A stretch of 38,588 bases of DNA from an uncultured Syntrophaceae bacterium (GTDB lineage Bacteria; Desulfobacterota; Syntrophia; Syntrophales; UBA2210), in the NCBI GenBank assembly GCA_964603235.1, contig CAZRUU010000001.1, positions 1 to 38,588 of the forward strand, written 5' to 3'. Made by a program: the position numbers and the translations under genes. The notes beneath the pieces are model-generated. The model made no database searches. It worked only from the letters and a program-made list of their open reading frames with translations, and was not told the DNA's origin. Shown here one piece after another: positions 4,000 to 32,435 of the stretch. Every line of letters begins with the position of its first letter. Position 1 is the stretch's first letter.

Positions 4000-4065
4000 A
4001 AACAAGACACCTTTAACCTTATACCCCACCCCCTTTCATTATCCATTTCATACAATATGCTTTTC

Positions 4066-9491: not shown

Positions 9492-9523
9492 CTTTTAAAA
9501 TAAAATTCTTTTCAATAAAGAAC

Positions 9524-10727: not shown

Positions 10728-10855
10728 TGGACGCTATATTGAAAAATCCTGATGTTCCGTGTAGAGAATAAGTATTAGAATCTCAGGATCTTTCAGCTTT
10801 GAAGTAAAACCAGTTGCAATAGTGATGCTAATGGGGAAGGTGGCCACGTGAAAAT

Positions 10856-12829: not shown

Positions 12830-12847
12830 AAAGCAAAGGAGAAAAAA

Positions 12848-13240: not shown

Positions 13241-13268
13241 CGAGTTAAGTCTGGAAGAGATGGAACCG

Positions 13269-13305
13269 GTATCCGGGGACTGTAACTTTTATGGTCCCCG
13301 GATAC
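13269..13305 (+). terminator. Perfect 12-bp stem-loop (GTATCCGGGGAC n13 GTCCCCGGATAC) between the small exported protein gene and the M20 gene
   Basis: The arms at 13269-13280 and 13294-13305 are exact reverse complements. No clear U-tract follows, so this may be an attenuator or mRNA-stability element rather than a full terminator. Confidence 0.45.
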
Positions 13306-13352
13306 ATTTGGTATAAATAATTCTGTTAAACAATACGGAAAGAATTTTAATC

Positions 13353-17309: not shown

Positions 17310-18422
17310 TTACAGAAGAGCATCAACCGGTACATACTCAAGCCCAAAAGCATCGGCAACACCCTTGTAGGTTACCTTGCCTTTTACCACATTGGCGCCC
17401 TGTTTGATTGCCGGATTTTCTCTAAAAGCGCCTTTCCATCCCTTGTTTGCGATTTCCACCGCGTATGGCAAAGTGGCATTAGTAAGGGCCCGTGTCGATG
17501 TCATGGATACGGCACCCGGCATATTGGCCACGCAGTAATGAATCACTCCGTCCACGGTGAAAACAGGATCCGTGTGTGTGGTGGGTGTTGATGTCTCGAA
17601 GCAACCGCCCTGATCTATGGCGACATCCACCATGACAGAACCTTTTTTCATGGTCTTTAACATGTCCCGGGTCACAAGTTTCGGCGCCTTGGCTCCAGGA
17701 ATAAGAACTGCCCCCACCACTAAATCAGCTTCCTTTATGAGCTTGCGAATTGTAACCGGTTTTGACATGAGCAGAAAACAGTTTTTCGGCATTACATCGC
17801 TCAGATAGCGTAACCGGGGAAGACTGTTGTCTAGAAGGTAAACTTTAGCGCCAAGGCCGCATGCCATCTTTGCGGCATTGGTTCCTACGATTCCGCCTCC
17901 AATGATGAGCACGGTGCCCGGATCAACGCCCGGAACTCCGCCCAGTAGAACTCCGGAACCGCCACGTGACATTTCAAGATACCTGGCTCCTTCCTGGACT
18001 GACATGCGTCCCGCCACCTCGCTCATGGGATTAAGGAGGGGCAGAGATCCATCTTTCTCCCGTATGGTTTCATAGGCTATGTTCACAGATCCGCTCTGGA
18101 GGAGGTATCTGGTCAGTTTTTCATTCGCGGCAAGATGGAGGTACGTGAAGACAATCTGACCATCCCTGATAAATTTATATTCCGACGGTATCGGCTCCTT
18201 GACATGCATTACCATTTCTGCGCGTTCGTAGATTTCCGCGGGGGATTCCACTATCTCTGCTCCGGCATTTACGTAAACTTTATCCGTGAATCCGCTCTTT
18301 ATTCCGGCCCTTTTCCCCACGAGAACGGTATGACCGTTCTGTTTCATCACTTCGACCCCTCCAGGGGTCATCGATACCCTGTTCTCTTCGGCCTTTATTT
18401 CTTTGAGAATTCCAACAATCAT
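17310..18422 (-). CDS. ald: L-alanine dehydrogenase
   Basis: 370 aa. N-terminus [23 protein letters not shown] and NAD fold [28 protein letters not shown] are characteristic of Ald. RBS AAGGAG. Confidence 0.9.
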
Positions 18423-18573: not shown

Positions 18574-19695
18574 TTACCAGAACATGGATTCTTCTATTGC
18601 CTTTAAGAGTCTTTTTATATCTTCAGGGTAGATGTCGCCAATGTTTCCGATCCTGAACGTATCGAGCTTTGTCACTTTGCCCGGGTAGATAACGAAACCC
18701 TTCTCTTTCAGTTTGTCATAGAATTTCTTAAAGTTGTACTTTTCGCTTTCGGGGCTGTAGAAGGATGTAATAATCGGTGACTGGAACTCGTCGGGCAGAA
18801 GAGTTTTGAATCCAAGTTTTCTCATTCCTTCGACCAGGATCTTCTGGCTGGTGCTGTATCGCTCGTGCCTCTTTTCAATTCCTCCCTCTTCTTCCAGTTC
18901 CAGCATCGCCTGGCAAAATGCCCTTACAACGTGGGTGGGAGAGGTGTACCGCCACTTGCCTCTGTCCGCTTCCATCATCTGCCACTGGTCATAGAGATCA
19001 AGGGAGAGCGAGCGGGCGTATCCCTTAATCTTTGTCATTTCCTCTTTCCTGGCGATGATAAAACCAAAGCCCGGAACTCCCTGGATACATTTGTTTGAGC
19101 TTCCAACACAGTAGTCGATGTTCAGGTCGGAAATATCCATAGGGACTCCACCGAAACTACTTATGGTGTCGGTAAAGTATACCTTCCCGTATTTTTTTGC
19201 TATCTCGCCTATCTTATTTATGGGATTGATCATACCCGTAGTCGTTTCACAGTGTACAACGGCAACGTGAGTTATATCCCTGTCTTCCTTCAGGGTTGAT
19301 TCAAGCTTTTCCAAGTCGGGCTTTGCCAGTTCCCCGCTGTTATGAACGATGGTGTTTATCTTGAGGGTTTTAGAGATCAGGGCGATCCTGTCTCCGTAGG
19401 CGCCGTTTGCGAGAACGAGAAGCTTGCCCTCGGGAGGGATTATGGAACCGATAATCGATTCAACGGAAAAGGTGCCGCTACCCTGCATAAGAGTGATTGT
19501 GTATTCTTCAGTTTTCTTCGTGGCCAGTGCGAGGAGCTTTGCCCGCAAATCTTCCACCAAGGTCTTGTAATCATCGTCCCAGGTGCACCAGTCTCTCAGC
19601 ATAACGGCCTTTACCGTTTTACTCGTCGACAATGGTCCCGGTGTCAAAAGTAAATAGGGATTATCTGGTATGTATTTTGTATCCATTGTATCCAT
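18574..19695 (-). CDS. phnW: 2-aminoethylphosphonate:pyruvate aminotransferase (class-V PLP enzyme)
   Basis: [30 protein letters not shown] and PLP-lysine context [16 protein letters not shown] fit PhnW. I prefer the ATG at 19695 (RBS AAGGAGG 6 nt upstream) to the GTG at 19791 in the ORF track. Confidence 0.8.
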
Positions 19696-19844
19696 TGTAC
19701 GCCTCCTTGATTTGATCTTTATGCTGACACCGGTGTAAACGACCCGACCTTCACAACGGGCAGCTATTAAAACGTATGTATTACAAGCCACGTAATATCG
19801 TATGAACCCTGAAGCATATTGTGGCTGCTCTTTTATGGTATGAA

Positions 19845-19908: not shown

Positions 19909-21156
19909 TTATGAAAATCCATAGGTCTTCTGTCTACTCTCAGGTATAAGCAAAACAGCTAAGATGCCCAGCGCCGCCAGAAAACTAAGCAGAAAAAAGA
20001 CTGATGTATATGATCCGAAGGCGTCGATGAGAATACCTGTCAGAAACATGGCGCACATGCTCCCCAGATGTCCCCCTGCCTCAAGAAAGCCGGACGCGGT
20101 TCCTGTTAGATCTGGTGAAAGTATGTCCAGTTCCAGCGCGAAGAAAAGAGTCCCTATGGTCTGGTCGAAAAAACCGATGCCTGCTATGAGCATGAGTACG
20201 ATAATTAAGTTGTCGGAAAGGGCCAGAAGGGCGGTGAATATGAGGATCATGAATAATCCCACCAGAATAACGGGTTTCCTTCTCCCTTTGAGGGTGATGT
20301 CCGACAGATAGCCACCCAGGGGTCGCGCTATGATGCCCATAAGGGGATAGATGCTCGCGCAGAGACCGGCCGAAACGACACTGAGGCCGTGGAATTCGTA
20401 GAGATACGAGGGGATCCATACGAGGCTGCAGTACGTTATATAGCTATGACAGGAGAATCCCAGGCAGGCCAACCTCGTCGGTCCGTTTGAAATGACGGCA
20501 AAGAACCTGTTTTTTCTTTGTAACGATACACCTTCTGGTCTCTCGCTGGGGTTGTACTCCCCGGTAATTATGCCGGAGCTGTCAGGGTGATCGGTTACAA
20601 GAAGACGGAAAATGACAAGGCCGGGGACCATGATAAGAGACGATACTATGAATACGATCCTCCAGCCGAATCTGTGGCCGACATACCCTGAGAGCAGATA
20701 GGCAAGAACGGTAAAAGCGGAGGTGCAGGTGCAGAATATTCCAAGGGCGCGCCCTCTTTCGGAAGCGGGAAACCAGTCGTTGAGAAGCTTGATGCTCGGG
20801 CTGAAACCACAACCCTGTCCAAGACCGTTTACGCTCTGGAGGCCAATGAGGAATCCAAGTCCTGTACCGGCGCTGAAGAGGGCATTTGCTACTAATGATA
20901 AAAAGCCGCCGGTGATGATAATCTTTCTGGAACCAAAAATATCGCTCAGATAACCCGCAGGGAGTTGCGCTATGGCATAGAAGGCAAAAAAGGTGGTGCT
21001 GATGAGACCGATCTGGGTGTGCGTGAGATGCAGATCCCTCATCATTAAGGGAATAACCGGCGCCAGGTTAAGCCTGTTCAGGTAATAACACCCGTAAACG
21101 AGCCAAAGAACAGCCAGGACCTTGTAACGGGGCTGATATTGGAGTTTTGAGAACAT
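19909..21156 (-). CDS. MFS transporter, organophosphate:phosphate antiporter-like (GlpT/UhpT/PgtP family)
   Basis: 415 aa. YYLNRLNLAPVIP, NGLGQGCGFSPSIKLLNDWFPASERG and TGTASGFLEAGGHLG parallel the GlpT motifs [38 protein letters not shown] and AGTAAGFTGLFGYLG (from memory). Confidence 0.75.
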   Translation of the reverse strand: MFSKLQYQPRYKVLAVLWLVYGCYYLNRLNLAPVIPLMMRDLHLTHTQIGLISTTFFAFYAIAQLPAGYLSDIFGSRKIIITGGFLSLVANALFSAGTGLGFLIGLQSVNGLGQGCGFSPSIKLLNDWFPASERGRALGIFCTCTSAFTVLAYLLSGYVGHRFGWRIVFIVSSLIMVPGLVIFRLLVTDHPDSSGIITGEYNPSERPEGVSLQRKNRFFAVISNGPTRLACLGFSCHSYITYCSLVWIPSYLYEFHGLSVVSAGLCASIYPLMGIIARPLGGYLSDITLKGRRKPVILVGLFMILIFTALLALSDNLIIVLMLIAGIGFFDQTIGTLFFALELDILSPDLTGTASGFLEAGGHLGSMCAMFLTGILIDAFGSYTSVFFLLSFLAALGILAVLLIPESRQKTYGFS

Positions 21157-21429: not shown

Positions 21430-22086
21430 TTAGTTATTTGAGTCCAAGAGGCGAAGCAATTCGTTGGAGGCATCCAGCACTGTCTCATATATCCCATGCG
21501 CTCCGGAAAAATCACCGTCCATTGTCAGCCTGTTGGGGATTACTATGCATCTGATCCCCGCCGCGATTGCCGCTCTGAGGCCGCGTTCCGAATCCTCTAC
21601 GATTATGCAACGCTCTTTTTTGAAACCGTTTTTTACGATTGCGGTGAGAAAGGGATCGGGGTCCGGTTTGGAGTGTTCGTAATCCTCACGGGTCAGCACA
21701 AAATCAAAATACGGCAGGAGTCCAGTGGCGGCATGAATAATGTCAAAGTGTTCCTTCCGGGAGCTCGTTACCACACCCATAGACACCCTGCCCTGAAGTA
21801 AGCGGAGCGTATGCCCGACACCGTCTATCGGTCGAACACCGCTCCGCAGCAGGTTGCTGTAGAGTCGATTACGTTTCTGACGGAGACGATAAATCTTCTC
21901 CGCTGTTACACCCCTTTCGGCGGCAAGATCGAAGCAACTACGACCCTGCTTCAGGGAAATCATCTTGAACAGCTTCTCGGTCAGTTCGATCCCCGCCCCG
22001 GAGAGGGCCTCTTTCGTTGACTCATAGTATAGCTTTTCCGTGTCGACAAGGACACCGTCATTGTCCCACAAGATCGCTTCCAGCAT
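21430..22086 (-). CDS. HAD-superfamily subfamily IA phosphatase (not a PhnX-type phosphonatase)
   Basis: 218 aa. Motif I DNDGVLVDTE, motif II VVTSS, motif III KPDPDPF, motif IV EDSERG. The nucleophile motif is the generic DxDG, not the DxAGT of phosphonoacetaldehyde hydrolase. Confidence 0.8.
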   Translation of the reverse strand: MLEAILWDNDGVLVDTEKLYYESTKEALSGAGIELTEKLFKMISLKQGRSCFDLAAERGVTAEKIYRLRQKRNRLYSNLLRSGVRPIDGVGHTLRLLQGRVSMGVVTSSRKEHFDIIHAATGLLPYFDFVLTREDYEHSKPDPDPFLTAIVKNGFKKERCIIVEDSERGLRAAIAAGIRCIVIPNRLTMDGDFSGAHGIYETVLDASNELLRLLDSNN

Positions 22087-22104: not shown

Positions 22105-23496
22105 CTAATCCCTGCCCCACTTCTTCAGATACGGGCCTAACAGTTCCTCCTCAGTGGGAACATGATAGTTCTCGATCGGCTGAGCGAGATTAGTATAATT
22201 CAGGAATTGCTTCCAGTTGACGTTCTGGCTGGTGATGTTGCCGGCCCATGTGCCGCACCCGAGGGTATCGGTAAATGCATTACCGCTGAACCAGGCGCCG
22301 CTGTTTGCCGCGCCGTGAGGCATATTGCAACAGACTCTTCCCACGTTTGCCTTGATGGCGAGTTCCATCATCCTGTCCTGACGAGTGGAGTGGATTGCAA
22401 TTGAATGTCCTTCGCCACAGAATTTGTGCATCTTTTTCGCTCGTTCAACCATCTCGCTGAAATCCGACCATTTCCATACGGTGAGCACGAGAGATATTTT
22501 TTCTCCGGAGAATCTGTCTTCAGGACCGATCTTTTCTCCCATGACCATGAGGCAGCGTGTGCCTTCGGGTATATCTATGCCAGCCATTTTTGCAGGATAT
22601 TCAACAGGCCTTGCCACACAGTCTCGGTTCAAAACTGTTCCCTCCGGCCACATCCATTTCCGAAGTCTCTCACGTTCTTCCGTGGTGCACAAGTAAGCGC
22701 CCTCTGCTTTCAGGCAGCCCATCATCTCGTCGAAGACACTTTCTTCAATGGCTACAGCGTTTTCCGAGGAACATGACGCAGAGTTATTGGCACATTTAGA
22801 TTTCATAATCTTGTTGGCGGCAGCTTTAAAATCAGCTGTAGAATCCACCATGGATATGACATTACCCGCACCGACCGTCTGTGCTGGTTTTCCGGCTTTA
22901 TAAACTACCTTGACCAGAGCCTCTCCACCGGTCGCAACAGCATAATCACAACTTGCCATGAGTTGCTGCGTCTTCTCATTAGTGGGCTGCTTGACGCACT
23001 GCATCAGGTCTTCAGGAGCACCAATTTTCTTCAGGGCCTTTCTGCCAAGTTCTACAGTCATGTATGAGCTTTTAGGCGTTCTCGGATGGGGAGACACGAT
23101 CATTGCGTTTCTTGTTTTTAATATACTAAGACCAAGTGCAGTAATAGTTGACTCGGGGTTTGTACAGGGCACCACATTAGCAATAACACCGATCGGCTTG
23201 GCCAGAATCTTGAGATTCTTTTCCGGTATATCTTCAACAACACCGCACGTCTTAACACCCTTTTGATCCCAGAGAGTGCCGAGACATTTATCCTTGATCT
23301 TGCCTAACTTGTCCTCGTAGCGGCCGATGCCGGATTCATCAACGGAAAGGTGTGCAAGAACCTTTCTGTTCTCCTCTTTCGACCACTCCCAGGCTGCTGC
23401 CTGGCACATCTCGTCGACTTTTTCCTGCGGCCAGAATTCGACGATTTCAAAGGCCTTCCGCGCCCTCTTGTACATTTCTTGAATGTTGTCTTCCAT
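22105..23496 (-). CDS. CoA-acylating aldehyde dehydrogenase (AdhE N-domain/EutE/PduP/SauS family)
   Basis: 463 aa. Catalytic Cys context KCANNSASCSSENAVAI. The C-terminal TLGCGTWAGNITSQNVNWKQFLNYT parallels AdhE LGCGSWGGNSISENVGPKHLIN. RBS GAGGAGG. Confidence 0.85.
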   Translation of the reverse strand: MEDNIQEMYKRARKAFEIVEFWPQEKVDEMCQAAAWEWSKEENRKVLAHLSVDESGIGRYEDKLGKIKDKCLGTLWDQKGVKTCGVVEDIPEKNLKILAKPIGVIANVVPCTNPESTITALGLSILKTRNAMIVSPHPRTPKSSYMTVELGRKALKKIGAPEDLMQCVKQPTNEKTQQLMASCDYAVATGGEALVKVVYKAGKPAQTVGAGNVISMVDSTADFKAAANKIMKSKCANNSASCSSENAVAIEESVFDEMMGCLKAEGAYLCTTEERERLRKWMWPEGTVLNRDCVARPVEYPAKMAGIDIPEGTRCLMVMGEKIGPEDRFSGEKISLVLTVWKWSDFSEMVERAKKMHKFCGEGHSIAIHSTRQDRMMELAIKANVGRVCCNMPHGAANSGAWFSGNAFTDTLGCGTWAGNITSQNVNWKQFLNYTNLAQPIENYHVPTEEELLGPYLKKWGRD

Positions 23497-23510
23497 GGTA
23501 TTTCTTACCT

Positions 23511-23562
23511 CCTCAAAAAAAGATTAAAGATACGGCCGACGGCTCACGCCTTCAGCCGTATC
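23511..23562 (-). terminator. Terminator/attenuator-like hairpin plus U-tract between the citrate-synthase-fold genes and the aldehyde dehydrogenase gene
   Basis: The minus strand reads GATACGGC tgaaggcgtgagccgtcg GCCGTATC (8-bp outer stem), followed by TTTAATCTTTTTTT and then the RBS of the aldehyde dehydrogenase gene. Confidence 0.4.
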
Positions 23563-23634
23563 GAGTACGTGACATTGCTACAATGCTGTATGGAATCATC
23601 CCCGTATGGAGGAATAACCCATTTTTGTGTTCAA

Positions 23635-24657
23635 TTACTTTTTCCCCTGCTTCTTTAGAGAATCACGGGGGTCAACAACATCTTCAATGATGCGCCAGCC
23701 CGTTCCGTACATCTTCTGCTTTTCTTCGAAACCTTTTTTCCATTCTTCGGGTGTCTTATACTCAACAGCAGAAGCAACTTTCTTCCTTTCCTCGAGGGTG
23801 GGTATCGACCGATCTTCCGGTCCATCATAGTCCTCTTTCGGGGTAAGGTCTTCACCGAATCTCCGTTGGGGTTCCCTCTCTACTTCCTCACACCAGTGAG
23901 CACCAGCCCCGAACGACCTGGTAATCGCCACAATGACCCATGTGGCGTCAGAGGAAAATCCCAGGTCCATCATGATAGCCCCAGTGGCTCCAAGCATATC
24001 GAGGTCAACGGGTTTGTCGCTAAGCTTCTGGGCTGCCGCCACTACTTCCTTCATGAAGGCAATGTATTTGCCGGAAACTCCCAGTTTTTCTGCCCGGGCA
24101 ACAGCCCTCTTGGCGGCCGGATCCTTCAGCATCAAATCGGAGACACCGAGGTGAACCGCGTCAAGATGTTCCTTTGCAAGCAATTCAGCAGCTTCTGTGG
24201 TTGTTTTTCCCTCGTTCTCCACCAGGGCGAGATACGTATCGAGCATCTTCCCGAAGGCGTCAAAAGCGCCATATGCGTGGCCAAAGGCGAGTATGGAAGC
24301 CCCGCATGCCTGGGTGAGGAGAGTGGTACTGCTTCCCGCGATCCGTGCAATTGCCGCGGGTGAAGACAGACCGTCATCAAGAGAAAGAACCATGAGGTAG
24401 TTCAGCATCTGAGTTTCTTCTATAAGGGGAATCCGTGCCTGGAAGTCAACGAAGATAATATCGGGAAGCCCGTATCCCGATTCAACCAGTTCGGTGGTGT
24501 CATAGCCCCTTGTCACAATACGGTGAACGTTTTTGTAGGCAACCTCGGAAACCCACTGGAAAGGATCCCGCTTCTTGTCCTGAGGAACAGTGCCCCGCTC
24601 CCTCTTTGAATAATCAAAATTTAACCTTGGATCATCTAAGTTACCTATAACACCCAT
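23635..24657 (-). CDS. Citrate-synthase-fold protein, citryl-CoA-lyase-like, subunit A (divergent active site)
   Basis: About 340 aa. VTRGYDTTELVESGYGLPDIIFVDFQARIP, LSLDDGLSSPAAIARIAGSS...AFGHAYGA and VDLDMLGATGAIMMDLGF follow the citryl-CoA lyase/citrate synthase small-form layout. I prefer the ATG at 24657 (RBS AAGGAGGG) to the GTG at 24666. The start overlaps the upstream paralog by 13 nt. Confidence 0.7.
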   Translation of the reverse strand: MGVIGNLDDPRLNFDYSKRERGTVPQDKKRDPFQWVSEVAYKNVHRIVTRGYDTTELVESGYGLPDIIFVDFQARIPLIEETQMLNYLMVLSLDDGLSSPAAIARIAGSSTTLLTQACGASILAFGHAYGAFDAFGKMLDTYLALVENEGKTTTEAAELLAKEHLDAVHLGVSDLMLKDPAAKRAVARAEKLGVSGKYIAFMKEVVAAAQKLSDKPVDLDMLGATGAIMMDLGFSSDATWVIVAITRSFGAGAHWCEEVEREPQRRFGEDLTPKEDYDGPEDRSIPTLEERKKVASAVEYKTPEEWKKGFEEKQKMYGTGWRIIEDVVDPRDSLKKQGKK

Positions 24658-25541
24658 TTTTTCCACCCTCCTTCCTCTTTCTGTTTCTTAGCGTATTCCT
24701 GTCTCTCTGCCTGGCTTGGGACTTCTCTGTCCTCGGGGCCCACGTATTTTATCATGGACAAATCGAGCATCTGTACCATAGGTTCCCTTTTCGACGCGGC
24801 CCAGGCGCGGCCTTTTTTCATCTGATAGAGGGCATGAGCTGCACAGCTGTATCCCCTGGTGACGCATCCGATACACCAGGCGGCATTGGGTGCGAACCCT
24901 ATCTCGGCAAGGGCGGTATTCCCCGCTCCGATCATATTGACAGCTACATAGGATTTACCCTCTCTTTTCCTCCGCGCATTGAAGTGCTTCTCTATCGACC
25001 TTTGAAGTTCCAGGTACACACCGTTTATACCCAGCTGTTCGTGCTTGATATGCGTCGGCTCGGCCCGGGGGTCCCCATCGAGATGCTGTGGCTGTCCCAT
25101 GCCCATAACGGCGAAACCGGCATCCATGTGCTCATCAACGAGAATCTTGCCCATTTCCTCCAGGGATATGCCCTCCACACGGGCACGTTCGATGTACTTA
25201 TGCATCATGTATCCGTGGGCAGCTCCCGGTCCATGGGCACTGCCAAAGGTCGAGACGGCGGCCGCGGCTGCGGCCGTAATACTGGGTCTTCCACTGATTA
25301 CCCCGAAGGCTGATGCCGCAGAGGGCGACATGGAATGTTCCAGGAATTCTCCCATTTCATATTCGAGCATTTTTTCCTCTTCCTCGGTGGGAAGCCTCTG
25401 CTGAAACAGGACAAACATAGCGTCGCAAAAGGTATATCCGGCCTCTGCCAGATCGCTTACGTTATAGCCACGTAAGACGGTCTTTTCTTCTGTCTTGTAG
25501 GAAATTGATGTCTTCCTGCGGAAGAATGGTTCTCTATTCAT
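24645..25541 (-). CDS. Citrate-synthase-fold protein, citryl-CoA-lyase-like, subunit B (divergent active site)
   Basis: 298 aa. TSISYKTEEKTVLRGYNVSDLAEAGYTFCDAMFVLFQQRLP, LEHSMSPSAASAFGVISGRPSITAAAAAAVSTFGSAHGPGA, VMGMGQPQHLDGDPRA and AVNMIGAGNTALAEIGF are collinear with citryl-CoA lyase motifs. RBS GGAGGAG. Confidence 0.7.
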   Translation of the reverse strand: MNREPFFRRKTSISYKTEEKTVLRGYNVSDLAEAGYTFCDAMFVLFQQRLPTEEEEKMLEYEMGEFLEHSMSPSAASAFGVISGRPSITAAAAAAVSTFGSAHGPGAAHGYMMHKYIERARVEGISLEEMGKILVDEHMDAGFAVMGMGQPQHLDGDPRAEPTHIKHEQLGINGVYLELQRSIEKHFNARRKREGKSYVAVNMIGAGNTALAEIGFAPNAAWCIGCVTRGYSCAAHALYQMKKGRAWAASKREPMVQMLDLSMIKYVGPEDREVPSQAERQEYAKKQKEEGGWKKWVL

Positions 25542-25767: not shown

Positions 25768-26640
25768 TCATTGGCTTACCCCTATGAAAATTACTCCCAG
25801 CGCAATGATGACAGAACCCGTCATCTTCTGCATGACATGCTGTTCTTTGAGCCATACAAGACCGTAAATCGTAGACAATACGATACTCACTTCTCGGACT
25901 GCGACGACGTAACTCACTTTGCTTATACGAAACGCAAAGAGCACCATCATATAAGTCAGGAGCACAACAACTCCCAGGGCAAGTATATTGTTTCTATTAC
26001 AGCGCCATTCCTTTTTCAGTGCCTCTCTTTTTTTTGTCAACACGAAGGGCGTCAACAGCACCACGACAATCAGCAGCATGATATATATATACAACGGCGG
26101 CTCCACAAAACCCACGCCTACCTTATCGACGAGTGAATAGCCTGCAATCGTAAGGCCCGTCATGATCGCCCAGGCTGACGCGCTATCCTTCACTGCGTGA
26201 AAAGGTTCTACGAAAGAATTGAATGCAAAGGATCTCAGGTGAATCACGTATATCCCTAACACAATCAGCGCGATACCAAGGGCCCCCAGCGGATAAATTT
26301 TTTCGTGCAGAAACAATACGGCCAGCAGCGGCACCAAAAGCGGTCCCGCGCCCCTGGAAATAGGATATACCAGCGAGAGATCGCCACGCTCGTAGGCACC
26401 ACTCATAAAAGTGAAATATAAAAGATGCAGCAGTCCCGTTGCAATGATACACAGCCATCCTTCCATTGCAATGTCAGCGCGAACCCAATAATAGAAAAAC
26501 ATTGGTGAATAAAAGACAAGCGACACAAGCAAGAAAGACCAGATGTAGGTAAGTTTATCGAGACTTTTTTTCAGAAAGAAATTCCACCCGGAATGCAAAA
26601 AAGCCGCCATTATCACTATCAAAAGAGCAACGTCACTCAC
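25768..26640 (-). CDS. EamA/DMT-family transporter (10-TM drug/metabolite exporter type)
   Basis: 290-aa hydrophobic ORF with two EamA-like halves. The ORF track start is a GTG, so the start is uncertain. Confidence 0.75.
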   Translation of the reverse strand: MSDVALLIVIMAAFLHSGWNFFLKKSLDKLTYIWSFLLVSLVFYSPMFFYYWVRADIAMEGWLCIIATGLLHLLYFTFMSGAYERGDLSLVYPISRGAGPLLVPLLAVLFLHEKIYPLGALGIALIVLGIYVIHLRSFAFNSFVEPFHAVKDSASAWAIMTGLTIAGYSLVDKVGVGFVEPPLYIYIMLLIVVVLLTPFVLTKKREALKKEWRCNRNNILALGVVVLLTYMMVLFAFRISKVSYVVAVREVSIVLSTIYGLVWLKEQHVMQKMTGSVIIALGVIFIGVSQ

Positions 26641-26725: not shown

Positions 26726-27820
26726 TCACATAATGACGGCGACTCTTATCGCTTCGCCCGATTCCGCAATTCTCAACCCTTCGTTGATATCGTCCAGACT
26801 TACCCTGTGCGTGACAATTTCACTGAAGGGAAAATCCTTATGTCGCGCCTCGAGGAACTCGAGTCCCGCTTTTAAATGTTTTGCATCATAATTATGAATG
26901 CCTCTGAGAGTAAGTCTCCTGAAAACGAGGTCTCCGGCATCATAGGAAAAATCGGCACCATTGAAAACACACCCTACTTCAACATACCGTCCTCCGATCC
27001 GAAGACATTTGAGGCCGAGACCGATGAGACCCGGTACACCCGCCACTTCCATGGCGCAATCGACTCCATGATCGTCTGTAAGACTTTTAATCGCATCGAC
27101 GACTTCATCTTCTCTCATATTCCGTACATTTATCGTATCAGTAGCACCGAACCGTTTTATAAAATCCAACCGGTGCTCCAATATATCGGTAACAATAATT
27201 TTTCTGCATCCGTAATGCGATGCCAGCGCGGCGGCATAAAATCCAAGCGCTCCAGCTCCCTGGATTAGTACGTTCTCAAAGGGTTTGACTTCGCCCGCCT
27301 CCCATCCAGCCACCACGGTTGCAAGGGCGCAGTTTGCCGGCGCCACTTCTTCGTCCGTGAGGTTTTCCGGAATCTTGAAGACGCAGGTGCCGGGTGTAAT
27401 ATAACAGTATTCGGCAAAACCGCCTTTGAAATGTGGAGAATCCGCACAACTGTCGTGACCGTACTTTTTCAGGTTTCGGCATTTCATGGGCAGGCCTTTA
27501 TCACGGCAATAATAACATTTTCCGCAGTTGTCCATAATCGTCCACGTGATCCGGTCACCGATCTGTAGCGGCTTGTCCGCGGTGTCATGCGTCACCCCCT
27601 TGCCGAATTCTACAATCGTTCCGACTATTTCATGGCCGAGAATAATAGGAACAGGCGCGGGCCTGTGGCCCAGCCATGAATGAACGTCGGAGCCGCAGAT
27701 GGTGCAGCAGGTTATCTTAACAAGGATACATCCCTTTTCTACCTCAGGTAAGGGATATTCTATGAATTCAAGATCCTTTTTCTGGGCCGTCATCACAGCG
27801 GCTCTTGCCATCTTGGTCAT
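26726..27820 (-). CDS. Zn-dependent medium-chain alcohol dehydrogenase
   Basis: 364 aa. Catalytic Zn ligands in CTICGSDVHSW...GHEIVG. Structural Zn CGKCYYCRDKGLPMKC. Rossmann LIQGAGALGFYAAALA. Confidence 0.85.
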   Translation of the reverse strand: MTKMARAAVMTAQKKDLEFIEYPLPEVEKGCILVKITCCTICGSDVHSWLGHRPAPVPIILGHEIVGTIVEFGKGVTHDTADKPLQIGDRITWTIMDNCGKCYYCRDKGLPMKCRNLKKYGHDSCADSPHFKGGFAEYCYITPGTCVFKIPENLTDEEVAPANCALATVVAGWEAGEVKPFENVLIQGAGALGFYAAALASHYGCRKIIVTDILEHRLDFIKRFGATDTINVRNMREDEVVDAIKSLTDDHGVDCAMEVAGVPGLIGLGLKCLRIGGRYVEVGCVFNGADFSYDAGDLVFRRLTLRGIHNYDAKHLKAGLEFLEARHKDFPFSEIVTHRVSLDDINEGLRIAESGEAIRVAVIM

Positions 27821-27963: not shown

Positions 27964-29280
27964 TCAATCGAACAGAAGACCGGGAAGCCAGAGCGCAATC
28001 TGCGGAAAGAAATAAATCAAAGCCACGCCCACGACTTGCAGAGCCATGAACGGCATCATTCCCTTATAGATATCCATGAGTGACCACTCCGGCATAATTC
28101 CCTTGATATAGTAGGCCGATAAAGCCACCGGAGGGGAGAGCCAGCATGTCTGCAGCACGACGGCCAGCAGAATGCAAAACCATAACATATTGATATCCAT
28201 CCCCATGAGAACCGGAATAAAGATAGGTATAATGATCACCACGATGGGAACCCACTCCAGGGGCCAGCCCAGGATAAAACAGACTATCAGGATGCCGGCC
28301 AGAAAAACCCAGTTGGGCAAATTCCAGGAAAGGAGAGTGTTGGCGATGAAGGCCGGCGTTCCCATCGAGGAAAAAACCACTCCCATGAATGTGGAAGCCG
28401 CGAGAAGAACCATCACCATGCTCGTCGTTTCGGCAGTGCGGAAGACGGCTTCCTTCACGAGCTTTAAGTTCAGTCTCCCGTTCAGCCATGTTACTATCAA
28501 GGCCCCAAGGCATCCGAGGGCCGCCCCTTCTGTGGGTGTGGCAATTCCTGATATAATGCTCCCCAGTGTCGCCAGGATGAGGACTGTCGGGGGCAGAAGT
28601 CCCAGAAAAAACTCACGAGCCTTGTAACTTGCGGCTACGTCGAGTTCCTCATCGGACAGAGGCGGACCCAGCTCCGGGTTGATCATGACCCTGATCATCG
28701 TGTATACGACGTACATGCTCGCGAGCATGATCCCTGGCAGGATCGCTGCGGAAAACAGCCGGGCCACGGAAACCTGCATCACCGGTCCCATGACCACTAG
28801 CATAATGCTGGGCGGTATCAGGATCCCCAGCGTTCCGCCGGCGCAAATACTTCCGGCGCTGAGCGAGGGGTTGTAATTGGCCTTGTTCATGACGGGAGCG
28901 GCCATCACTCCGATGATGGTGACGGCGGCGCCCACAATCCCCGTTGCCGCCGCGAACAAAGTTGCCGAAAAGATGGTCCCTATGTACAATGAGCCCTTGA
29001 GCCGGCCGGAAATGAGAAGAAGAGATCTGAAGAGACGTTCCATCAGTCCCGCCTTCTCGAGTATATAGCCCATAAAGGTAAAAAGCGCCACAGCCGCGAG
29101 AACCGTATCTGTCATCGTGTCGAACCAGGTAAGAGTCATAAGGTAGAACACCTTAGTGCCTAACCCGATAAAACCGAATGCCATGCCGAGTGCGATCAGC
29201 GTGAAAGAAATGGGGAATCCCACACAGATAAAGACGAATAGAGCCACCAAAAGTATTAAACCGTATATTTCCAAACTCAT
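27964..29280 (-). CDS. TRAP transporter large permease (DctM family)
   Basis: 438-aa polytopic ORF of typical DctM size and composition, downstream of the DctQ-like and DctP-like genes. Confidence 0.9.
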   Translation of the reverse strand: MSLEIYGLILLVALFVFICVGFPISFTLIALGMAFGFIGLGTKVFYLMTLTWFDTMTDTVLAAVALFTFMGYILEKAGLMERLFRSLLLISGRLKGSLYIGTIFSATLFAAATGIVGAAVTIIGVMAAPVMNKANYNPSLSAGSICAGGTLGILIPPSIMLVVMGPVMQVSVARLFSAAILPGIMLASMYVVYTMIRVMINPELGPPLSDEELDVAASYKAREFFLGLLPPTVLILATLGSIISGIATPTEGAALGCLGALIVTWLNGRLNLKLVKEAVFRTAETTSMVMVLLAASTFMGVVFSSMGTPAFIANTLLSWNLPNWVFLAGILIVCFILGWPLEWVPIVVIIIPIFIPVLMGMDINMLWFCILLAVVLQTCWLSPPVALSAYYIKGIMPEWSLMDIYKGMMPFMALQVVGVALIYFFPQIALWLPGLLFD

Positions 29281-29385
29281 TTATTCCTCCTACTACATGT
29301 CGTTTCCATGCATTCAAAAAGTTCCGCCGTTCCCTGAATCAACAGAAGAGTCAAGGGCAATGCTGTACCAGGGTGGATAACGGAT

Positions 29386-29928
29386 TCATGTAATCTCAGT
29401 GGGTTCCTCTTCCCGGTGGCGAGTATCCTCCCCCGTCCGTAAAAACTTTATCGATTTGAGAAGTTCCGAGATCCCCTGGAGAAACAGCAGGGTGCCACCT
29501 AAGGGAATTGTCGATTTGTACCAGTATGCCGGGGGCCTCCACGTCGTCATCAGCTCTTCCCTCAAGGCCCAGGAACCGGCAGCATACTCCATGCTCAGCC
29601 AGACGAACATCGCTATCCCGGGTAGAAAGAGGAAGACATAGCAAAACACGTCAACCCAGCACTGCGTCCGTGGTTTCCAATTTTGATAAAGAAAATCAGT
29701 CCGGATATGTTTCCCCATGTAGAGAGTCATGGCTGCAGCAAGCCAATAATGAGTCCCGTAGCACATGGTAGATATATCAATAGCCCATAACGTTGGGCGG
29801 TACGTATAACGGATAAAGACCTCCCAGACCAGCGCGCCCGCCATCGGGAGGATAAGCCAAGCAGCGGTTTTCCCTGTCCATATGCTGATCTGATCGATCA
29901 CTTTGGTGATCCGATCCATATTTTTCAT
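29386..29928 (-). CDS. TRAP transporter small permease (DctQ family)
   Basis: About 180 aa with four predicted TM segments. I prefer the ATG at 29928 (GGAG 9 nt upstream) to the GTG at 29943. Confidence 0.8.
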   Translation of the reverse strand: MKNMDRITKVIDQISIWTGKTAAWLILPMAGALVWEVFIRYTYRPTLWAIDISTMCYGTHYWLAAAMTLYMGKHIRTDFLYQNWKPRTQCWVDVFCYVFLFLPGIAMFVWLSMEYAAGSWALREELMTTWRPPAYWYKSTIPLGGTLLFLQGISELLKSIKFLRTGEDTRHREEEPTEIT

Positions 29929-30038
29929 AGCTTCAGTCTCCACAATCTCGCGATGGCCCAGCCCTGAGCCATCGCTCCTTGTTGAAATGGTAGTTTTTCT
30001 AACGCTCTCTCGGCATCTTCACCCACAATATCTTACCC

Positions 30039-30076
30039 GGCCAACCTTTCCCGACAATATCCGGGAAGGGTTGGCC
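30039..30076 (-). promoter_or_regulatory. Strong intercistronic stem-loop between the TRAP receptor and small-permease genes
   Basis: GGCCAACCTTTCCCG acaatatc CGGGAAGGGTTGGCC pairs 14 of 15 positions. No U-tract follows, so it resembles an mRNA-stability or differential-expression hairpin downstream of a binding-protein gene. Confidence 0.55.
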
Positions 30077-30138
30077 CAAGCAAGATGTTTGTGGCGATCA
30101 GACCCGCCATGCGACGCATTCGCCGCTTTTATAAGCGC

Positions 30139-31260
30139 TTATTTTTTGATCTCCGCAGCTCCGGCGATCAACTGCCCCAGCTTGTTGGTCTCTTTGGTGA
30201 AAGGGACCACCAGAGTGGCATATTTGCGCTGTGAATCGAGGACCTTTTTAAAGAACGGTTCTTTCGCCTCGATTTTACCGAGCACTCTTTTCGCTGATTT
30301 AATGAAGGCCTCCGAATACCCGGGAGGCGCGTCGAACACATTGACGCCCTTTTCCTCGATCAGTATCTTCAGGGCCTTGGAATTCTCTTCAATAAAGAAC
30401 ATCAAACCATCGATGATCGACTTTGAGGTTGCACAGGTGATGATCGCCTGGAGATCCGGGGGCAGTGCACGCCATGCCTCGCCGTTGATTATAATATCCT
30501 GGATGCCGATCGCCTGGTGGAGCCCCTGAAGGGAGTAGTTCTTACACACGTCATAGAGCCCCATCTTCAGGTCACTGGACGTATTGATCCACTCCCCACC
30601 ATCGAGAAGACCCCTCTCCAACGCGGGGATGATCTCGGCTCCATGCATATTCACCGGGATACCGCCCATATCCTTCAGGACATCCGACGACAGGCCCGAA
30701 GACATGCGGTATCTCTTTTTCAGGTAATCTTTGAGCGTCTTGGGCTGCACCCGGGACCACCCGAAGGCCTCAGGTCCGTCCGGCGCGATCATGAAGGGCA
30801 TGACGTCCGCACCGAGGATCTTAGTGTAATATTCCAGGTAGAGATCCCTTCCTTCCCCTTGCAGGTACCAGGAAAGATGGTTGAACATGTCAAGCCCGCT
30901 TCCTGCACCGCCAAGCGGGGAGCTGAAGAGACTACCGGCCGGGTTTTTCCCCATCGTGTAATGGGTCCAAAACTGTCCGCACTGGATGATCCCCTTGTCG
31001 ACAGCGTCCAAAAGTTGAAAGGGTTTCACGATGGCTCCACTCGCGAGGACTTCGATCTTCAGTCTCCCTGCCGACATCTTATCAATGTCGTCAGCCATTC
31101 TGTTCAGCAACACAATTTGAGGGGCCCCTGCTGGGTGTGAGCTTTGCATCTTCCACTTGATCTGTGCCGCATGCGCTGACACTGTAAGACCGGAAATGCT
31201 CAAGGTCAAAGCGCAGGCAACAACCACTGCCAACGAAACACCTAAAATTTTTCTTTTCAT
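30139..31260 (-). CDS. TRAP transporter periplasmic solute receptor (DctP family, long subtype)
   Basis: 373 aa with a signal peptide ending SAHAAQ. Strong RBS AAGGAGGAAG. It is the first gene of the DctP-Q-M array. Confidence 0.85.
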   Translation of the reverse strand: MKRKILGVSLAVVVACALTLSISGLTVSAHAAQIKWKMQSSHPAGAPQIVLLNRMADDIDKMSAGRLKIEVLASGAIVKPFQLLDAVDKGIIQCGQFWTHYTMGKNPAGSLFSSPLGGAGSGLDMFNHLSWYLQGEGRDLYLEYYTKILGADVMPFMIAPDGPEAFGWSRVQPKTLKDYLKKRYRMSSGLSSDVLKDMGGIPVNMHGAEIIPALERGLLDGGEWINTSSDLKMGLYDVCKNYSLQGLHQAIGIQDIIINGEAWRALPPDLQAIITCATSKSIIDGLMFFIEENSKALKILIEEKGVNVFDAPPGYSEAFIKSAKRVLGKIEAKEPFFKKVLDSQRKYATLVVPFTKETNKLGQLIAGAAEIKK

Positions 31261-31469
31261 GGTCTTCCTCCTTAGTACGTTAGGTTAGTAGTTCAACTAA
31301 TTTTAAAATCCCAACTATATTCTACCACTTGTCGCTCTTTGTTCCCTCCTTTCTCTTCGTATTTGATATGATTTTGAGAAAATCCCTTACTATCGGATAT
31401 TGGTTTGGCAGGACAGCATGTCTTTCCAGGTATCCTTAACGATATTGCCGTCTCTCGATCCGAATCATT

Positions 31470-32435
31470 TTACTGTTTCTTTTTTTTAGACTTCATTTCC
31501 TCATAGGTCCTGTTTAAAAGCCGTATTACGTCATAATCCGTGTCTTGCATGCTCACGCACTTTTCGGCCTTGACATTGTCAAGCCACGCCTGGCATGTGG
31601 GCTCTTCATGGATGGTAAGAAATGCCTGCCTGATTTTTTCTCTCAAGTCCGGAGGGAGGTCCATCCTGTACGCAAAGGGATCCTGGGGAATCGTTGCGGA
31701 CCACCAGATGTAATTGAAATCCTCTTTTTTCACGACGTTGCGCTCTACAACGTTGTCGAATCGATGGCTGGCGACAAATGCGCAGTCTATCTTGCCGTCA
31801 TAAACCGCCATGATGGAAAGATCATGTCCCCCTGAATAGACTACCTTCTTGAAATACTCCTCCAGGGGCATTCCGATCTCTTTTGCGAAAACCACCCGGG
31901 GCACCAGATTTCCCGACGTGCTTTCAGGATCAGTCAGAACGATAGTCGCTCCCTTTATGGATTCAACCGATGTATATTTGCTGCCCTTTTTTGTTATGAT
32001 GACGGCCTGGTATCCCGGGCCGCTTTTGCTGATATATCCCTGTTTCTTCTTGTAGGTGGCGAATACCACTATGTTGGGATCTTTTTCGTGGGCAATCACG
32101 TATGAAAATGGTCCGTGAACGGCGACATCCACCCACCCATTAACCTGCGCTTCCACAACGCTGGAATAGGAGGCGGGCATATAGAAATTTATTTTTTTCC
32201 CGGTGCATTTTGAAAGATAGTCTATAAGAGGCTTATAGATGTTAAGTTCCTGGATGGTTTCCTCGGTGGGGATGATGGAAAATGTGAGAACCTCAGGATT
32301 CTTCAACCTGTCATCCGCAGAGAGACAGCCTGCCCCTGAGAGGATGAGACATGCCGATGCAAAGAAGGCGACCACTAATCTTGAGATTATTATTTTCTTC
32401 ACAATGCCAACCTTACTGCGCTTGTAACTAATCAA
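31470..32435 (-). CDS. PhnD-like phosphate/phosphonate-type periplasmic binding protein, orphan (no cognate ABC permease or ATPase adjacent)
   Basis: LTFSIIPTEETIQELNIYKPLIDYLSKCTGKKINFYMPASYSSVVEAQVNGWVDVAVHGPFSYV fits the PhnD family. The ORF track start is a TTG; a GTG at 32402 would give an MKKIIISRL... signal peptide. Confidence 0.75.
   Translation of the reverse strand: MISYKRSKVGIVKKIIISRLVVAFFASACLILSGAGCLSADDRLKNPEVLTFSIIPTEETIQELNIYKPLIDYLSKCTGKKINFYMPASYSSVVEAQVNGWVDVAVHGPFSYVIAHEKDPNIVVFATYKKKQGYISKSGPGYQAVIITKKGSKYTSVESIKGATIVLTDPESTSGNLVPRVVFAKEIGMPLEEYFKKVVYSGGHDLSIMAVYDGKIDCAFVASHRFDNVVERNVVKKEDFNYIWWSATIPQDPFAYRMDLPPDLREKIRQAFLTIHEEPTCQAWLDNVKAEKCVSMQDTDYDVIRLLNRTYEEMKSKKKKQ

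Follow-up and report, generated by a model that had tools for sequence, protein, structure and literature searches.

The window, a 38,588-nucleotide stretch of contig CAZRUU010000001.1 from an uncultured Syntrophaceae bacterium, contains two adjacent minus-strand ORFs that a preliminary description of this DNA had picked out as tandem citrate synthase-like paralogs. Both ORFs were confirmed; we term them X1 and X2. They lie among genes of phosphonate metabolism and transport, as follows.

15802..17154 (+): PbfA, (R)-1-hydroxy-2-aminoethylphosphonate ammonia-lyase (NF049939, 702 bits vs 525)
17310..18422 (-): alanine dehydrogenase (TIGR00518, 499 bits vs 392)
18574..19791 (-): PhnW, 2-aminoethylphosphonate (AEP):pyruvate transaminase (TIGR02326, 576 bits vs 401)
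19909..21156 (-): MFS transporter, best matches to sugar-phosphate and phosphoglycerate transporter families
21430..22086 (-): HAD-IA hydrolase, beta-PGM-like by family models
22105..23496 (-): CoA-acylating aldehyde dehydrogenase (ALDH), candidate acylating phosphonoacetaldehyde dehydrogenase yielding phosphonoacetyl-CoA
23529..23562 (-): hairpin and U tract in the X2-ALDH spacer, strong (z = -3.8)
23635..24657 (-): X2, 340 aa, X1 paralog with conserved N- and C-terminal extensions
24645..24657 (-): X1/X2 overlap ATGGGTGTTATAG, 13 nt, X1 stop to X2 start
24645..25541 (-): X1, 298 aa, citryl-CoA lyase (CCL)-like, proposed catalytic subunit
25768..26640 (-): EamA-type membrane protein, phosphonate-utilization-associated (phn_DUF6), present in 22 loci
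26726..27820 (-): Zn-dependent alcohol dehydrogenase (Zn-ADH), phosphonate-catabolism-associated, HpnZ-like (TIGR03366, 308 bits vs 328)
27964..32435 (-): TRAP transporter (DctM, a small DctQ-sized ORF, DctP-like) and PhnD-like phosphonate-binding protein
33141..35848 (-): two-component system, NarL/MctR-type response regulator and PAS histidine kinase

The two-component system is likely the regulator of the island; it is syntenic in one other locus (L010). The Zn-ADH recurs in 23 loci. The HAD hydrolase was considered as a phosphonatase (PhnX) and ruled out, scoring 27.9 bits against TIGR01422 vs 220. The hairpin in the X2-ALDH spacer was not flagged by a simple terminator scan, and could serve as an attenuator or a partial terminator. 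An Rfam scan of the window gave no matches, promoter and terminator scans of the window did no better than on shuffled sequence, and the leader upstream of X1 likewise folded no better than shuffles. No succinyl-CoA-synthetase-like or ATP-grasp gene, as for citryl-CoA synthetase or ATP-citrate lyase (ACL), was found among the annotated window ORFs; nor was either family seen among the 30 commonest neighbor clusters, several of which are unannotated.

The X1 and X2 proteins

X1 and X2 align collinearly with one another (32% identity, E 4e-43) and with the Hydrogenobacter CCL structure 6hxp (E 6e-18 for X1, 4e-14 for X2), as had been proposed; 6hxp is the best PDB relative of both. Each matches the Pfam profile Citrate_synt (PF00285) above its gathering score of 27, X1 at 59.4 and X2 at 39.4 bits, and neither reaches the NCBIfam citryl-CoA lyase cutoff of 212 (PRK06224 subfamilies; 109 and 101 bits). 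These matches assign both proteins to the citrate synthase/CCL fold. Their tails, YVGPEDREVPSQAERQE and YDGPEDRSIPTLEERKK, are related as first noted, and correspond to the usual C-terminal Y-x-G-x(3)-R-x-x-P motif, which reads YTGSPPRELP in CCL.

The 13-nt overlap between the genes, also reported at the outset, holds if the ATG at 24657 is taken as the start of X2; this ATG has a GGAGG ∼10 nt upstream, and the alternative start is a GTG at 24666. An overlap of this length with an in-frame ATG or GTG was found in 80 of 81 loci. Together the overlap and the GGAGG point to translational coupling of X1 and X2. Each gene has hundreds of orthologs at 60–95% identity. Mean column identity is 84% for X1 (84 sequences) and 72% for X2, and crude pN/pS is about 0.05 for X1 and about 0.10–0.12 for X2. 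Both genes are under purifying selection, and with so many orthologs and such low pN/pS the ORFs are not due to chance. In 81 of 83 loci X2 is the gene right after X1. From this adjacency, the conserved overlap and a fold that is obligately oligomeric, we infer that X1 and X2 almost certainly form an obligate heteromer.

Active-site positions were read from phmmer, hhalign and MAFFT alignments. We take the catalytic triad of pig citrate synthase to be His274 (in HGGA, contacting the acetyl-CoA carbonyl), His320 (in G-x-G-H) and Asp375 (in N-V-D-G); the G-x-G-H motif is a PROSITE-type signature. The first-His column holds H103 in X1 (invariant, with a Pro inserted to give AHGPGA), Y129 in X2 and Phe in the CCL module of ACL, so a His in this column is not a strict criterion for a canonical enzyme. 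The second-His column, which is His in CCL, ACL and Bacillus subtilis citrate synthase, holds Q150 in X1 (GMGQPQH) and V172 in X2, or D174 according to phmmer. The Asp column holds I204 in X1 (NMIG) and L222 in X2 (LDMLG). The alignments thus agree with the preliminary description that X1 keeps the first His (FGSAHGPGA) and has GMGQ and NMIG where GxGH and NVDG are expected, and that X2 has Tyr in place of the first His and lacks the second. It had further taken the Asp in VDLDMLGA of X2 as catalytic, and the triad as split over the two subunits. Neither idea survived: D220 is matched to the Asn of NVDG, and the two chains alike lack a His in the second column and an Asp in the catalytic column. 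The pair retains only one of the three triad residues. The second His and the Asp, common to citrate synthase, CCL and ACLY sequences, are gone from both chains, which bears out the remodelled active site that had been suspected and makes citrate or citryl-CoA chemistry unlikely, also as first supposed.

X1 keeps the substrate-binding His and two Arg residues (H69, R159 and R229), all invariant like H103. X2 has lost most of the substrate-binding residues (D95, A181), and has its own invariant residues near the motif positions, D218, D220 and H127. Because X1 alone keeps the first His, the substrate-binding His and the two Arg, the asymmetry looks like that of one catalytic subunit with a diverged partner, with no composite triad. 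The basic residue that presumably binds the CoA diphosphate in citrate synthase, four positions past the second-His column, is absent at that position in X1, and X2 has a Lys nearby. AlphaFold2 models were poor (mean pLDDT 46 for X1 and 55 for X2), which we link to input alignments with many sequences that were too alike (Neff about 1.3).

Genomic neighborhoods

At least 242 species-level genomes, belonging to sediment and anoxic lineages, carry the X1X2 module. Carriers include Desulfobacterales, Syntrophales, Planctomycetota, Opitutales, Chloroflexota, Spirochaetota, Gemmatimonadota and others, and the 80 retrieved loci are all from metagenome-assembled genomes. An acylating ALDH gene follows X2 in 58 of the 64 loci with at least 3.5 kb of sequence past X2, and this X1X2-ALDH association is the only constant partnership across loci. 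The minimal operon is PhnW-X1-X2-ALDH (L006). In the other six of the 64 loci no ALDH was nearby; for ALDH-less loci L027, L040, L057, L064 and L008, no alternative partner was found among the neighbors.

Phosphonate genes scoring above curated cutoffs, in the window and other loci, were PhnW, PbfA, PhnE, PhnS2 and TIGR01098, the last a general phosphate/phosphonate binding-protein model; the specific PhnD model fell just under its cutoff (230 vs 261 bits). One locus (L003) has a PhnW-AepZ-type transaminase above the curated cutoff. A role in sulfonate metabolism, acting on sulfoacetyl-CoA, was rejected given the neighbors PhnW, PbfA, PhnD (below the specific cutoff), PhnE and PhnS2, and the lack of sulfonate genes. 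A HAD hydrolase adjoins the ALDH in ∼37 loci and is of two non-orthologous types, that of the window (13 loci) and a second (24 loci) matching CTE7/YjjG models, with TIGR01422 not among its matches listed. NUDIX hydrolases occur in 7 loci. A PhnA-like protein of the alkaline phosphatase superfamily (TIGR02335, 208 bits) was found in 15 of 83 loci; its presence could mean that phosphonoacetate is the species cleaved.

The ALDH has the catalytic Cys, the CoA-protonating His and homology to SucD, AdhE and EutE that place it in the CoA-acylating class. Among NCBIfam models SauS, acylating sulfoacetaldehyde dehydrogenase, fits it best, at 464 bits and so below the equivalog cutoff of 600, and the structure nearest to the ALDH is the succinyl-CoA reductase SucD (8cei, E 1e-78); the ALDH also matches AdhE (355 bits) and EutE (300 bits). 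C242, K70 and S243 do not vary among 65 orthologs, of which 64 have H364. AdhE has Ala at both positions equivalent to Lys70 and Ser243. In SucD these two residues bind the distal carboxylate (PMC10249356). Their invariance here points to an anionic acyl group.

Beyond the X1 and X2 families, the closest sequence relatives are single-copy sister proteins (P0397 in L091, P0440 in L095) with an X1-type site: HGPG, HQPQH and NMLG, without the Asp. Their genes sit between two CoA-transferase subunit genes, which suggests that this clade works on an acyl-CoA made in situ. A thioesterase role is unlikely for this clade, since together with the transferase it would form a futile cycle.

Nanoarchaeial loci encode an X1 (77% identical) fused to a cytidylyltransferase-like domain, with X2 alongside. 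The cluster looks biosynthetic, with PEP-mutase and no acylating ALDH; a C–P hydrolase would be hard to rationalize in it. No phosphonopyruvate decarboxylase (Ppd) was seen there, and we considered whether X1X2 replaces it, but alpha-keto acid decarboxylation needs other chemistry. The cluster also encodes a CobD-like PLP decarboxylase and an AepZ-type transaminase, which can account for a route via phosphonoalanine that needs no Ppd.

A possible CoA-dependent route from AEP to acetyl-CoA

The occurrence of the pair with a CoA-acylating ALDH inside phosphonate-degradation clusters suggests CoA-dependent C–P cleavage. The reading that we favor, with moderate confidence, is that phosphonoacetaldehyde is converted to phosphonoacetyl-CoA, and that an X1X2 heteromer, with X1 catalytic, cuts the C–P bond to give acetyl-CoA and phosphate. 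PhnW, acting on AEP, and PbfA, acting on 1-hydroxy-AEP, would converge on phosphonoacetaldehyde; alanine dehydrogenase would regenerate pyruvate for PhnW, and the Zn-ADH would perhaps feed in phosphonoacetaldehyde from 2-hydroxyethylphosphonate. The adjacent ALDH would then form phosphonoacetyl-CoA, whose CH2–P bond would be cleaved by X1X2 in the last step. At the scissile bond this substrate would be isosteric with citryl-CoA, with tetrahedral P in place of the quaternary C3. The thioester carbonyl, stabilized by X1 H103, would serve as electron sink, while the phosphonate would be held by H69, R159 and R229, whose counterparts in citrate synthase bind oxaloacetate. Claisen and retro-Claisen reactions need the second His and the Asp as proton shuttles; C–P cleavage would not, and both residues are absent. 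X2, diverged yet constrained, would complete the dimer and may supply residues in trans. Counting against phosphonoacetyl-CoA cleavage are the Nanoarchaeial cluster, the six ALDH-less loci, the PhnA-like hydrolase of 15 loci, the missing basic residue of X1 past the second-His column, and the HAD hydrolases, which stand outside the scheme.

X1X2 might instead act without CoA, as an analog of PhnX that hydrolyzes phosphonoacetaldehyde to acetaldehyde and Pi, with the ALDH serving as an acetylating acetaldehyde dehydrogenase that makes acetyl-CoA. The net stoichiometry and gene set would be identical, the matches of the ALDH to AdhE and EutE would fit, and so would the few loci that have X1X2 but no ALDH. 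We nonetheless consider this unlikely. SauS and SucD are the top matches of the ALDH, in which the distal-anion Lys70 and Ser243 are invariant, and CoA-transferases flank the sister families. To our knowledge the characterized members of the citrate synthase fold all act on an acyl-CoA, and a tight, obligatory ALDH linkage is not known from PhnX clusters.

Quite unlikely is a phosphonoacetyl-CoA thioesterase or CoA-recycling enzyme that releases phosphonoacetate, with the PhnA-like hydrolase of 15 loci left to cut the C–P bond. Citrate synthase does carry out a hydrolytic half-reaction on citryl-CoA, but most loci, the window and minimal operons included, have no PhnA-like gene. Making a thioester only to hydrolyze it would forfeit what is gained over PhnY, the known non-acylating enzyme, and would be futile beside the CoA-transferases of the sister families. 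There is likewise only a slim chance that X1X2, instead of simply hydrolyzing the C–P bond of phosphonoacetyl-CoA, transfers its phosphoryl group to an acceptor; products could include ATP made from ADP, acetyl phosphate, or a phosphorylated compound on which the recurrent HAD hydrolases act next. If so, C–P bond energy would be conserved in addition to thioester energy, and the cytidylyltransferase-X1 fusion of the archaeal phosphonate-biosynthetic clusters would be accounted for by the same chemistry, run with a nucleotide donor.

That fusion, found in clusters rich in nucleotidyltransferases, and the NUDIX hydrolases of 7 loci could also be taken to mean that X1X2 acts on CMP-phosphonate or another non-CoA ligand in a role common to biosynthesis and catabolism, such as processing of cytidylylated AEP or phosphonoacetaldehyde. 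This is very unlikely, as a nucleotidyltransferase is missing from most catabolic loci, again including the window and minimal operons, and the sole constant partner is a CoA-acylating ALDH. Finally, we give hardly any credence to the model put forward at first, a composite His/His/Asp triad drawn from both chains for some other Claisen-type reaction: the conserved overlap and adjacency support a heteromer well, and X2 D218, D220 and H127 are invariant near motif positions, but the X2 Asp lies two columns off the catalytic one, the second-His column has no His in either chain, and in a citrate synthase dimer one chain provides most of each site while the other contributes only Arg residues in trans.

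We searched open-access papers and bioRxiv, and found nothing relevant on phosphonoacetyl-CoA or an acylating phosphonoacetaldehyde dehydrogenase, nor on citrate synthase-like or CCL proteins with PhnW, AEP or PepM. This suggests that cleavage of phosphonoacetyl-CoA by X1X2 would be an undescribed CoA-dependent route for AEP catabolism in anaerobes. AEP is the most abundant natural phosphonate, and we know of only a handful of C–P-cleaving types: PhnX, PhnA, PalA, the oxidative PhnY*/PhnZ type and C–P lyase. If our proposal is true, thioester-activated C–P cleavage in a citrate synthase fold would be a further route for AEP, its direct yield of acetyl-CoA would suit energy-limited anaerobes, and a Claisen enzyme would have been repurposed by dropping the proton shuttles and retaining the sites that bind the enolate and the anion. 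Existing annotation of the module is only “citrate synthase” or “hypothetical”, so current surveys of phosphonate cycling would overlook the module, which may also be mistaken for a TCA-cycle marker in counts.

Comparison with known systems

The sister CCL-like proteins share HGPG, HQPQH, N-M-L-G and the missing Asp with X1. They differ in being encoded by a single gene, in taking their acyl-CoA from a CoA-transferase and in having no phosphonate context; they are likewise uncharacterized. SauS, the best family model for the ALDH partner, acts on sulfoacetaldehyde, the sulfonate analog of phosphonoacetaldehyde, whereas the partner ALDH scores under the equivalog cutoff and its neighbors are phosphonate rather than sulfonate genes. 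We know of no CCL-like desulfonating partner for sulfoacetyl-CoA.

X1X2 resembles Hydrogenobacter thermophilus Ccl (6hxp) and the CCL module of ACLY in fold, short length and collinear motifs. Formally, the reaction we propose is an identical bond heterolysis, X-CH2-CO-SCoA going to acetyl-CoA enolate and an electrophile, but the leaving group would be phosphate instead of oxaloacetate. X1X2 lacks the second His and catalytic Asp in both chains, and would be a heteromer of two paralogs where CCL is a homo-oligomer.

With the PhnW-PhnX (phosphonatase) and PhnW-PhnY-PhnA (phosphonoacetate hydrolase) pathways, the proposed route would share its entry enzymes, PhnW and PbfA, its intermediate phosphonoacetaldehyde, and the principle of a carbonyl beta to phosphorus as electron sink. 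X1 and X2 are of a fold unrelated to that of PhnX, a member of the HAD superfamily. The sink would be a CoA thioester in X1X2, in place of the Schiff base of PhnX or the metal-bound carboxylate of PhnA, and the product would be acetyl-CoA, with energy conserved, rather than the acetaldehyde or acetate of the PhnX and PhnA routes.

X1, X2 and their catalytic columns

The preliminary description had placed two adjacent ORFs with a citrate-synthase fold at 23635-25541, and both are present there, on the minus strand:

24645-25541, minus strand: X1, 298 aa, ATG start, AGGAGG 7 nt upstream
23635-24657, minus strand (23635-24666 in the ORF listing): X2, 340 aa from the ATG at 24657, GGAGG upstream

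X2 almost certainly begins with the ATG at 24657, not at 24666, given the upstream GGAGG and the 13-nt overlap with X1 (ATGGGTGTTATAG), which was confirmed with this start.

Both proteins matched Pfam Citrate_synt above its threshold of 27 bits (X1 59.4, X2 39.4). Against the NCBIfam citryl-CoA lyase (CCL) subfamilies they scored only ~100–109 bits, far below thresholds of at least 193. The closest solved structure for both was Hydrogenobacter thermophilus CCL, 6hxp (E 6e-18 for X1, 4e-14 for X2). They are nearer each other (32% identity, E 4e-43) than either is to CCL; they are paralogs, duplicated inside a CCL-like lineage. The related tails noted earlier exist, but each is the normal C-terminal motif, Y-x-G-x(3)-R-x-x-P, which CCL has too. 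X2 has conserved N- and C-terminal extensions, absent from X1 and CCL in the MAFFT alignment.

Catalytic columns were assigned by phmmer alignment of X1 and X2 to 6hxp, by profile-profile alignment of 20 X1 against 24 X2 sequences, and by MAFFT alignment with CCL, the CCL module of an ATP-citrate lyase (ACL) and a B. subtilis citrate synthase (CS) fragment. The three alignments, independent of one another, were concordant. The established pig CS numbers and roles serve as reference.

Residues of X1 and X2 at pig CS catalytic columns
His274, triad: X1 H103; X2 Y129
His320, triad: X1 Q150; X2 V172 (D174 in the phmmer alignment)
Asp375, triad: X1 I204; X2 L222
His238, oxaloacetate/citrate ligand: X1 H69; X2 D95
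Arg329, oxaloacetate/citrate ligand: X1 R159; X2 A181
Arg401, oxaloacetate/citrate ligand: X1 R229; X2 R247

His320 and Asp375, the two residues common to CS, CCL and ACL sequences, are thus absent from both X1 and X2. The ACL CCL module departs the other way, with Phe at the His274 column and no Arg329 equivalent but with His320 and Asp375 kept (MAFFT). The observations of the preliminary description largely held; its reading of a triad split over two chains did not, since the Asp it assigned to X2, conserved D220, aligns with the Asn and not the Asp of N-V-D-G. Its broader proposal still stands as a prediction: that the pair is a heteromer whose site is remodelled and whose chemistry is not that of citrate.

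All six X1 residues in the table are invariant among 20 diverse X1 orthologs, as are H109, Q152, H153, N202, N208, C233 and H236. X1 is the more conserved chain, with a mean column identity of 84% vs 72% for X2 over 84 sequences and a crude pN/pS of ~0.05 vs ~0.11. X2 is constrained at H127, D218, D220, R247 and H254.

Gene neighbourhoods and the acylating dehydrogenase

X1 had 517 matches at E < 1e-5 in a 5.8-billion-protein set; the best 120 of these were 74–94% identical, ~298 aa long, and named only "citrate synthase" or "hypothetical". The X2 search had a similar outcome. A relative was encoded in 242 stretches of the GTDB species set, and all 80 loci retrieved came from MAGs, mostly of anoxic-habitat lineages. 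ORFs were called in 83 non-redundant loci and compared with the window proteins.

Genes found with X1 among the 83 loci
X2 directly after X1: 81/83 (the remaining two are contig ends)
13-nt overlap with in-frame start: 80/81
Aldehyde dehydrogenase (ALDH) ortholog, 62–90% identity: 58/64 with at least 3.5 kb past X2
PhnW/AepZ-type transaminase: 27
PbfA: 15
Zn-ADH: 23
EamA: 22
PhnD: 11
PhnA-like hydrolase: 15/83

The ALDH gene lies immediately 3' or with only a PhnW-type transaminase between, and the minimal operon is PhnW-X1-X2-ALDH (L006/L007; also Chloroflexota and Anaerolineales loci). From these counts the constant functional unit is X1, X2 and ALDH. In loci other than the window, PhnE, PhnS2 and an AepZ-type transaminase (that of L003) also scored above their cutoffs.

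Three loci carry a 329–332-aa protein of no Pfam family adjoining the module (L008 8433-9422; L045 4221-5219 and L052 6201-7196, both Spirochaetota), followed 3' by an extracellular solute-binding protein in L008 and by an unannotated ORF of about that size in the others. At L064 8865-10495 a PHO4 phosphate transporter and a PhoU_div protein adjoin the module, which would fit phosphate as a product needing handling.

In the window, X1 and X2 reside in a minus-strand phosphonate-catabolic island, with PbfA on the opposite strand:

minus strand: PhnD-like binding protein and TRAP transporter
minus strand: HpnZ-like Zn-ADH
minus strand: EamA membrane protein, phosphonate-associated type
minus strand: X1 and X2
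22105-23496, minus strand: ALDH, 463 aa
21430-22086, minus strand: HAD hydrolase
minus strand: MFS transporter, best matching sugar-phosphate and phosphoglycerate transporter families
minus strand: PhnW, 576 bits vs cutoff 401
minus strand: alanine dehydrogenase
plus strand: PbfA, 702 bits vs cutoff 525

Phosphonoacetaldehyde is the product of both PhnW and PbfA. Neither of the C-P hydrolases PhnX and PhnA was found in the window; its HAD hydrolase scored 28 bits against a PhnX cutoff of 220. A Deltaproteobacteria MAG locus (L010) is syntenic with the window at 86–90% DNA identity, and a Syntrophales MAG locus (L011) is 81–83% identical.

The 138-nt X2-ALDH spacer (23497-23634, minus strand) holds a strong hairpin (~23529-23562) followed by a U tract (MFE -45 kcal/mol, z = -3.8), just 5' of the ALDH ribosome-binding site. 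A simple terminator scan made no call here; the hairpin may be an attenuator setting the X1X2:ALDH ratio.

Further genes for uptake and catabolism lie in the 5' part of the window (88-7069 and 8484-14702). They encode an ABC transporter (SBP_bac_6, permease, ATPase with TOBE), a saccharopine-dehydrogenase-like protein, a second class-III aminotransferase, an RpiR regulator, an M20 peptidase, and a TAXI-type TRAP system (NMT1_3-family binding protein and 657-aa DctM-type permease). These may be part of a larger island for the use of aminophosphonates or amines.

By its relatives the ALDH is a member of the CoA-acylating class. Among solved structures it is closest to succinyl-CoA reductase SucD of Clostridium kluyveri (8cei, E 1e-78), to AdhE and to acetylating acetaldehyde dehydrogenases. 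The top NCBIfam model, acylating sulfoacetaldehyde dehydrogenase SauS, gave 464 bits, under its equivalog cutoff of 600 (AdhE 355, EutE-type 300). Catalytic Cys242 does not vary, and 64/65 orthologs keep His364. In SucD the distal carboxylate is bound by Lys70 and Ser243, which are Leu and Val in PduP (PMC10249356). Lys70 and Ser243 are both invariant in the 65/65 ALDH orthologs adjoining X1X2, which argues for an aldehyde with an anionic group, presumptively phosphonoacetaldehyde, as substrate and phosphonoacetyl-CoA as product. E. coli AdhE has Ala at both positions.

Sister families and features that do not fit

When 1.84 billion representatives were searched exhaustively with HMMER, just 382 relatives passed E < 0.001, and 25 passed E < 1e-30. 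Outside X1 and X2 they form a graded series: single-copy proteins P0242 and P0397 with an X1-type site (FAHGPG, GLHQPQH, N-M/V-L-G); P0274 and P0440 with GFHHPQH and no Asp; and ordinary CCL-like P0285 and P0286 with GFGHPQH and NVDG. P0397 has a CoA-transferase subunit on either side (L091 4066-6829); P0440 lies 3' of two such subunits and is followed by an ALDH and two class-III aminotransferases (L095 6234-10331). The series and these neighbours point to an X1-type site older than the X1/X2 duplication, in a clade acting on acyl-CoA supplied by a neighbouring enzyme. A thioesterase would be futile beside a CoA-transferase, so it makes better sense to read the enzyme as a lyase whose product is still a CoA ester. 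The single-copy, Asp-less CCL-like proteins of L091 and L095 would then be an acyl-CoA lyase clade of their own.

Several features do not fit C-P hydrolysis by X1X2. Foremost are Nanoarchaeial MAG loci (L001 10001-12309, equal to L048, and L090 10001-11284) whose X1 is 77% identical with every invariant residue kept, fused to an N-terminal cytidylyltransferase-like domain (PF01467, RfaE-domain-II/TagD-like). The cluster of this fusion and X2 includes a PepM-nucleotidyltransferase (NTP_transf) fusion, an AepZ-type transaminase, a CobD-like PLP decarboxylase, three B12-radical-SAM enzymes, an HD protein, nucleotidyltransferases and a CDP-alcohol phosphatidyltransferase (CDP-OH_P_transf); neither Ppd nor an acylating ALDH is visible in it. 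It resembles a cluster for phosphonate biosynthesis, where a C-P hydrolase is hard to account for, and this counts against the proposed reaction.

Two non-orthologous HAD-IA hydrolases, which also do not fit, occupy the same slot right after ALDH (in the window and, e.g., at L003 15141-15851 and L013 14583-15284), one beta-PGM-like, the type in the window (13 loci), and one CTE7/YjjG-like (24 loci); neither is PhnX. Nor does the scheme accommodate a PhnA-like protein of the alkaline-phosphatase superfamily (L003 15866-16951 and 14 other loci; TIGR02335 208 bits vs cutoff 407). NUDIX hydrolases lie near the module in 7/83 loci; these and the PhnA-like protein may add phosphonoacetate or nucleotide-linked phosphonates to the substrates used. 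The six of 64 loci without a nearby ALDH we likewise count as misfits.

A proposed CoA-dependent C-P cleavage

We propose that X1X2 and ALDH form a CoA-dependent C-P cleavage module. Their assignment to phosphonoacetaldehyde catabolism is probable; toward the specific X1X2 reaction we lean only modestly. ALDH would convert phosphonoacetaldehyde, CoA and NAD(P)+ to phosphonoacetyl-CoA, which X1X2 would hydrolyse to acetyl-CoA and Pi. We found no description of phosphonoacetyl-CoA cleavage, of an acylating phosphonoacetaldehyde dehydrogenase or of a CCL-like protein in phosphonate catabolism in the open-access literature searched.

X1 would be the catalytic chain and X2 a constrained partner completing the dimer. 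X1 H69, R159 and R229, whose CS equivalents hold the oxaloacetate carboxylates, would hold the phosphonate, and the new invariant H109 and H153 are candidates for water activation or enolate protonation. In CS an Arg is supplied in trans from the region matching an R-E-P segment whose Arg is kept in both X1 and X2; it aligns with K-P of CCL (MAFFT).

The scissile bond of citryl-CoA joins the thioester CH2 to tetrahedral C3; in phosphonoacetyl-CoA the same CH2 is joined to tetrahedral phosphorus. C-P heterolysis would yield the same acetyl-CoA enolate as citryl-CoA does, stabilised by the retained X1 H103. There would be no hydroxyl (the role of His320) and no methyl (the role of Asp375) to deprotonate, consistent with the loss of both equivalents. 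To our knowledge, the three known C-P hydrolases, PhnX, PhnA and PalA, each rely on an electron sink of the carbonyl type, beta to phosphorus, and a thioester would likewise be a good one. If the proposal is right, the gain over PhnY/PhnA would be that the energy of aldehyde oxidation is kept as acetyl-CoA, which fits anaerobic hosts.
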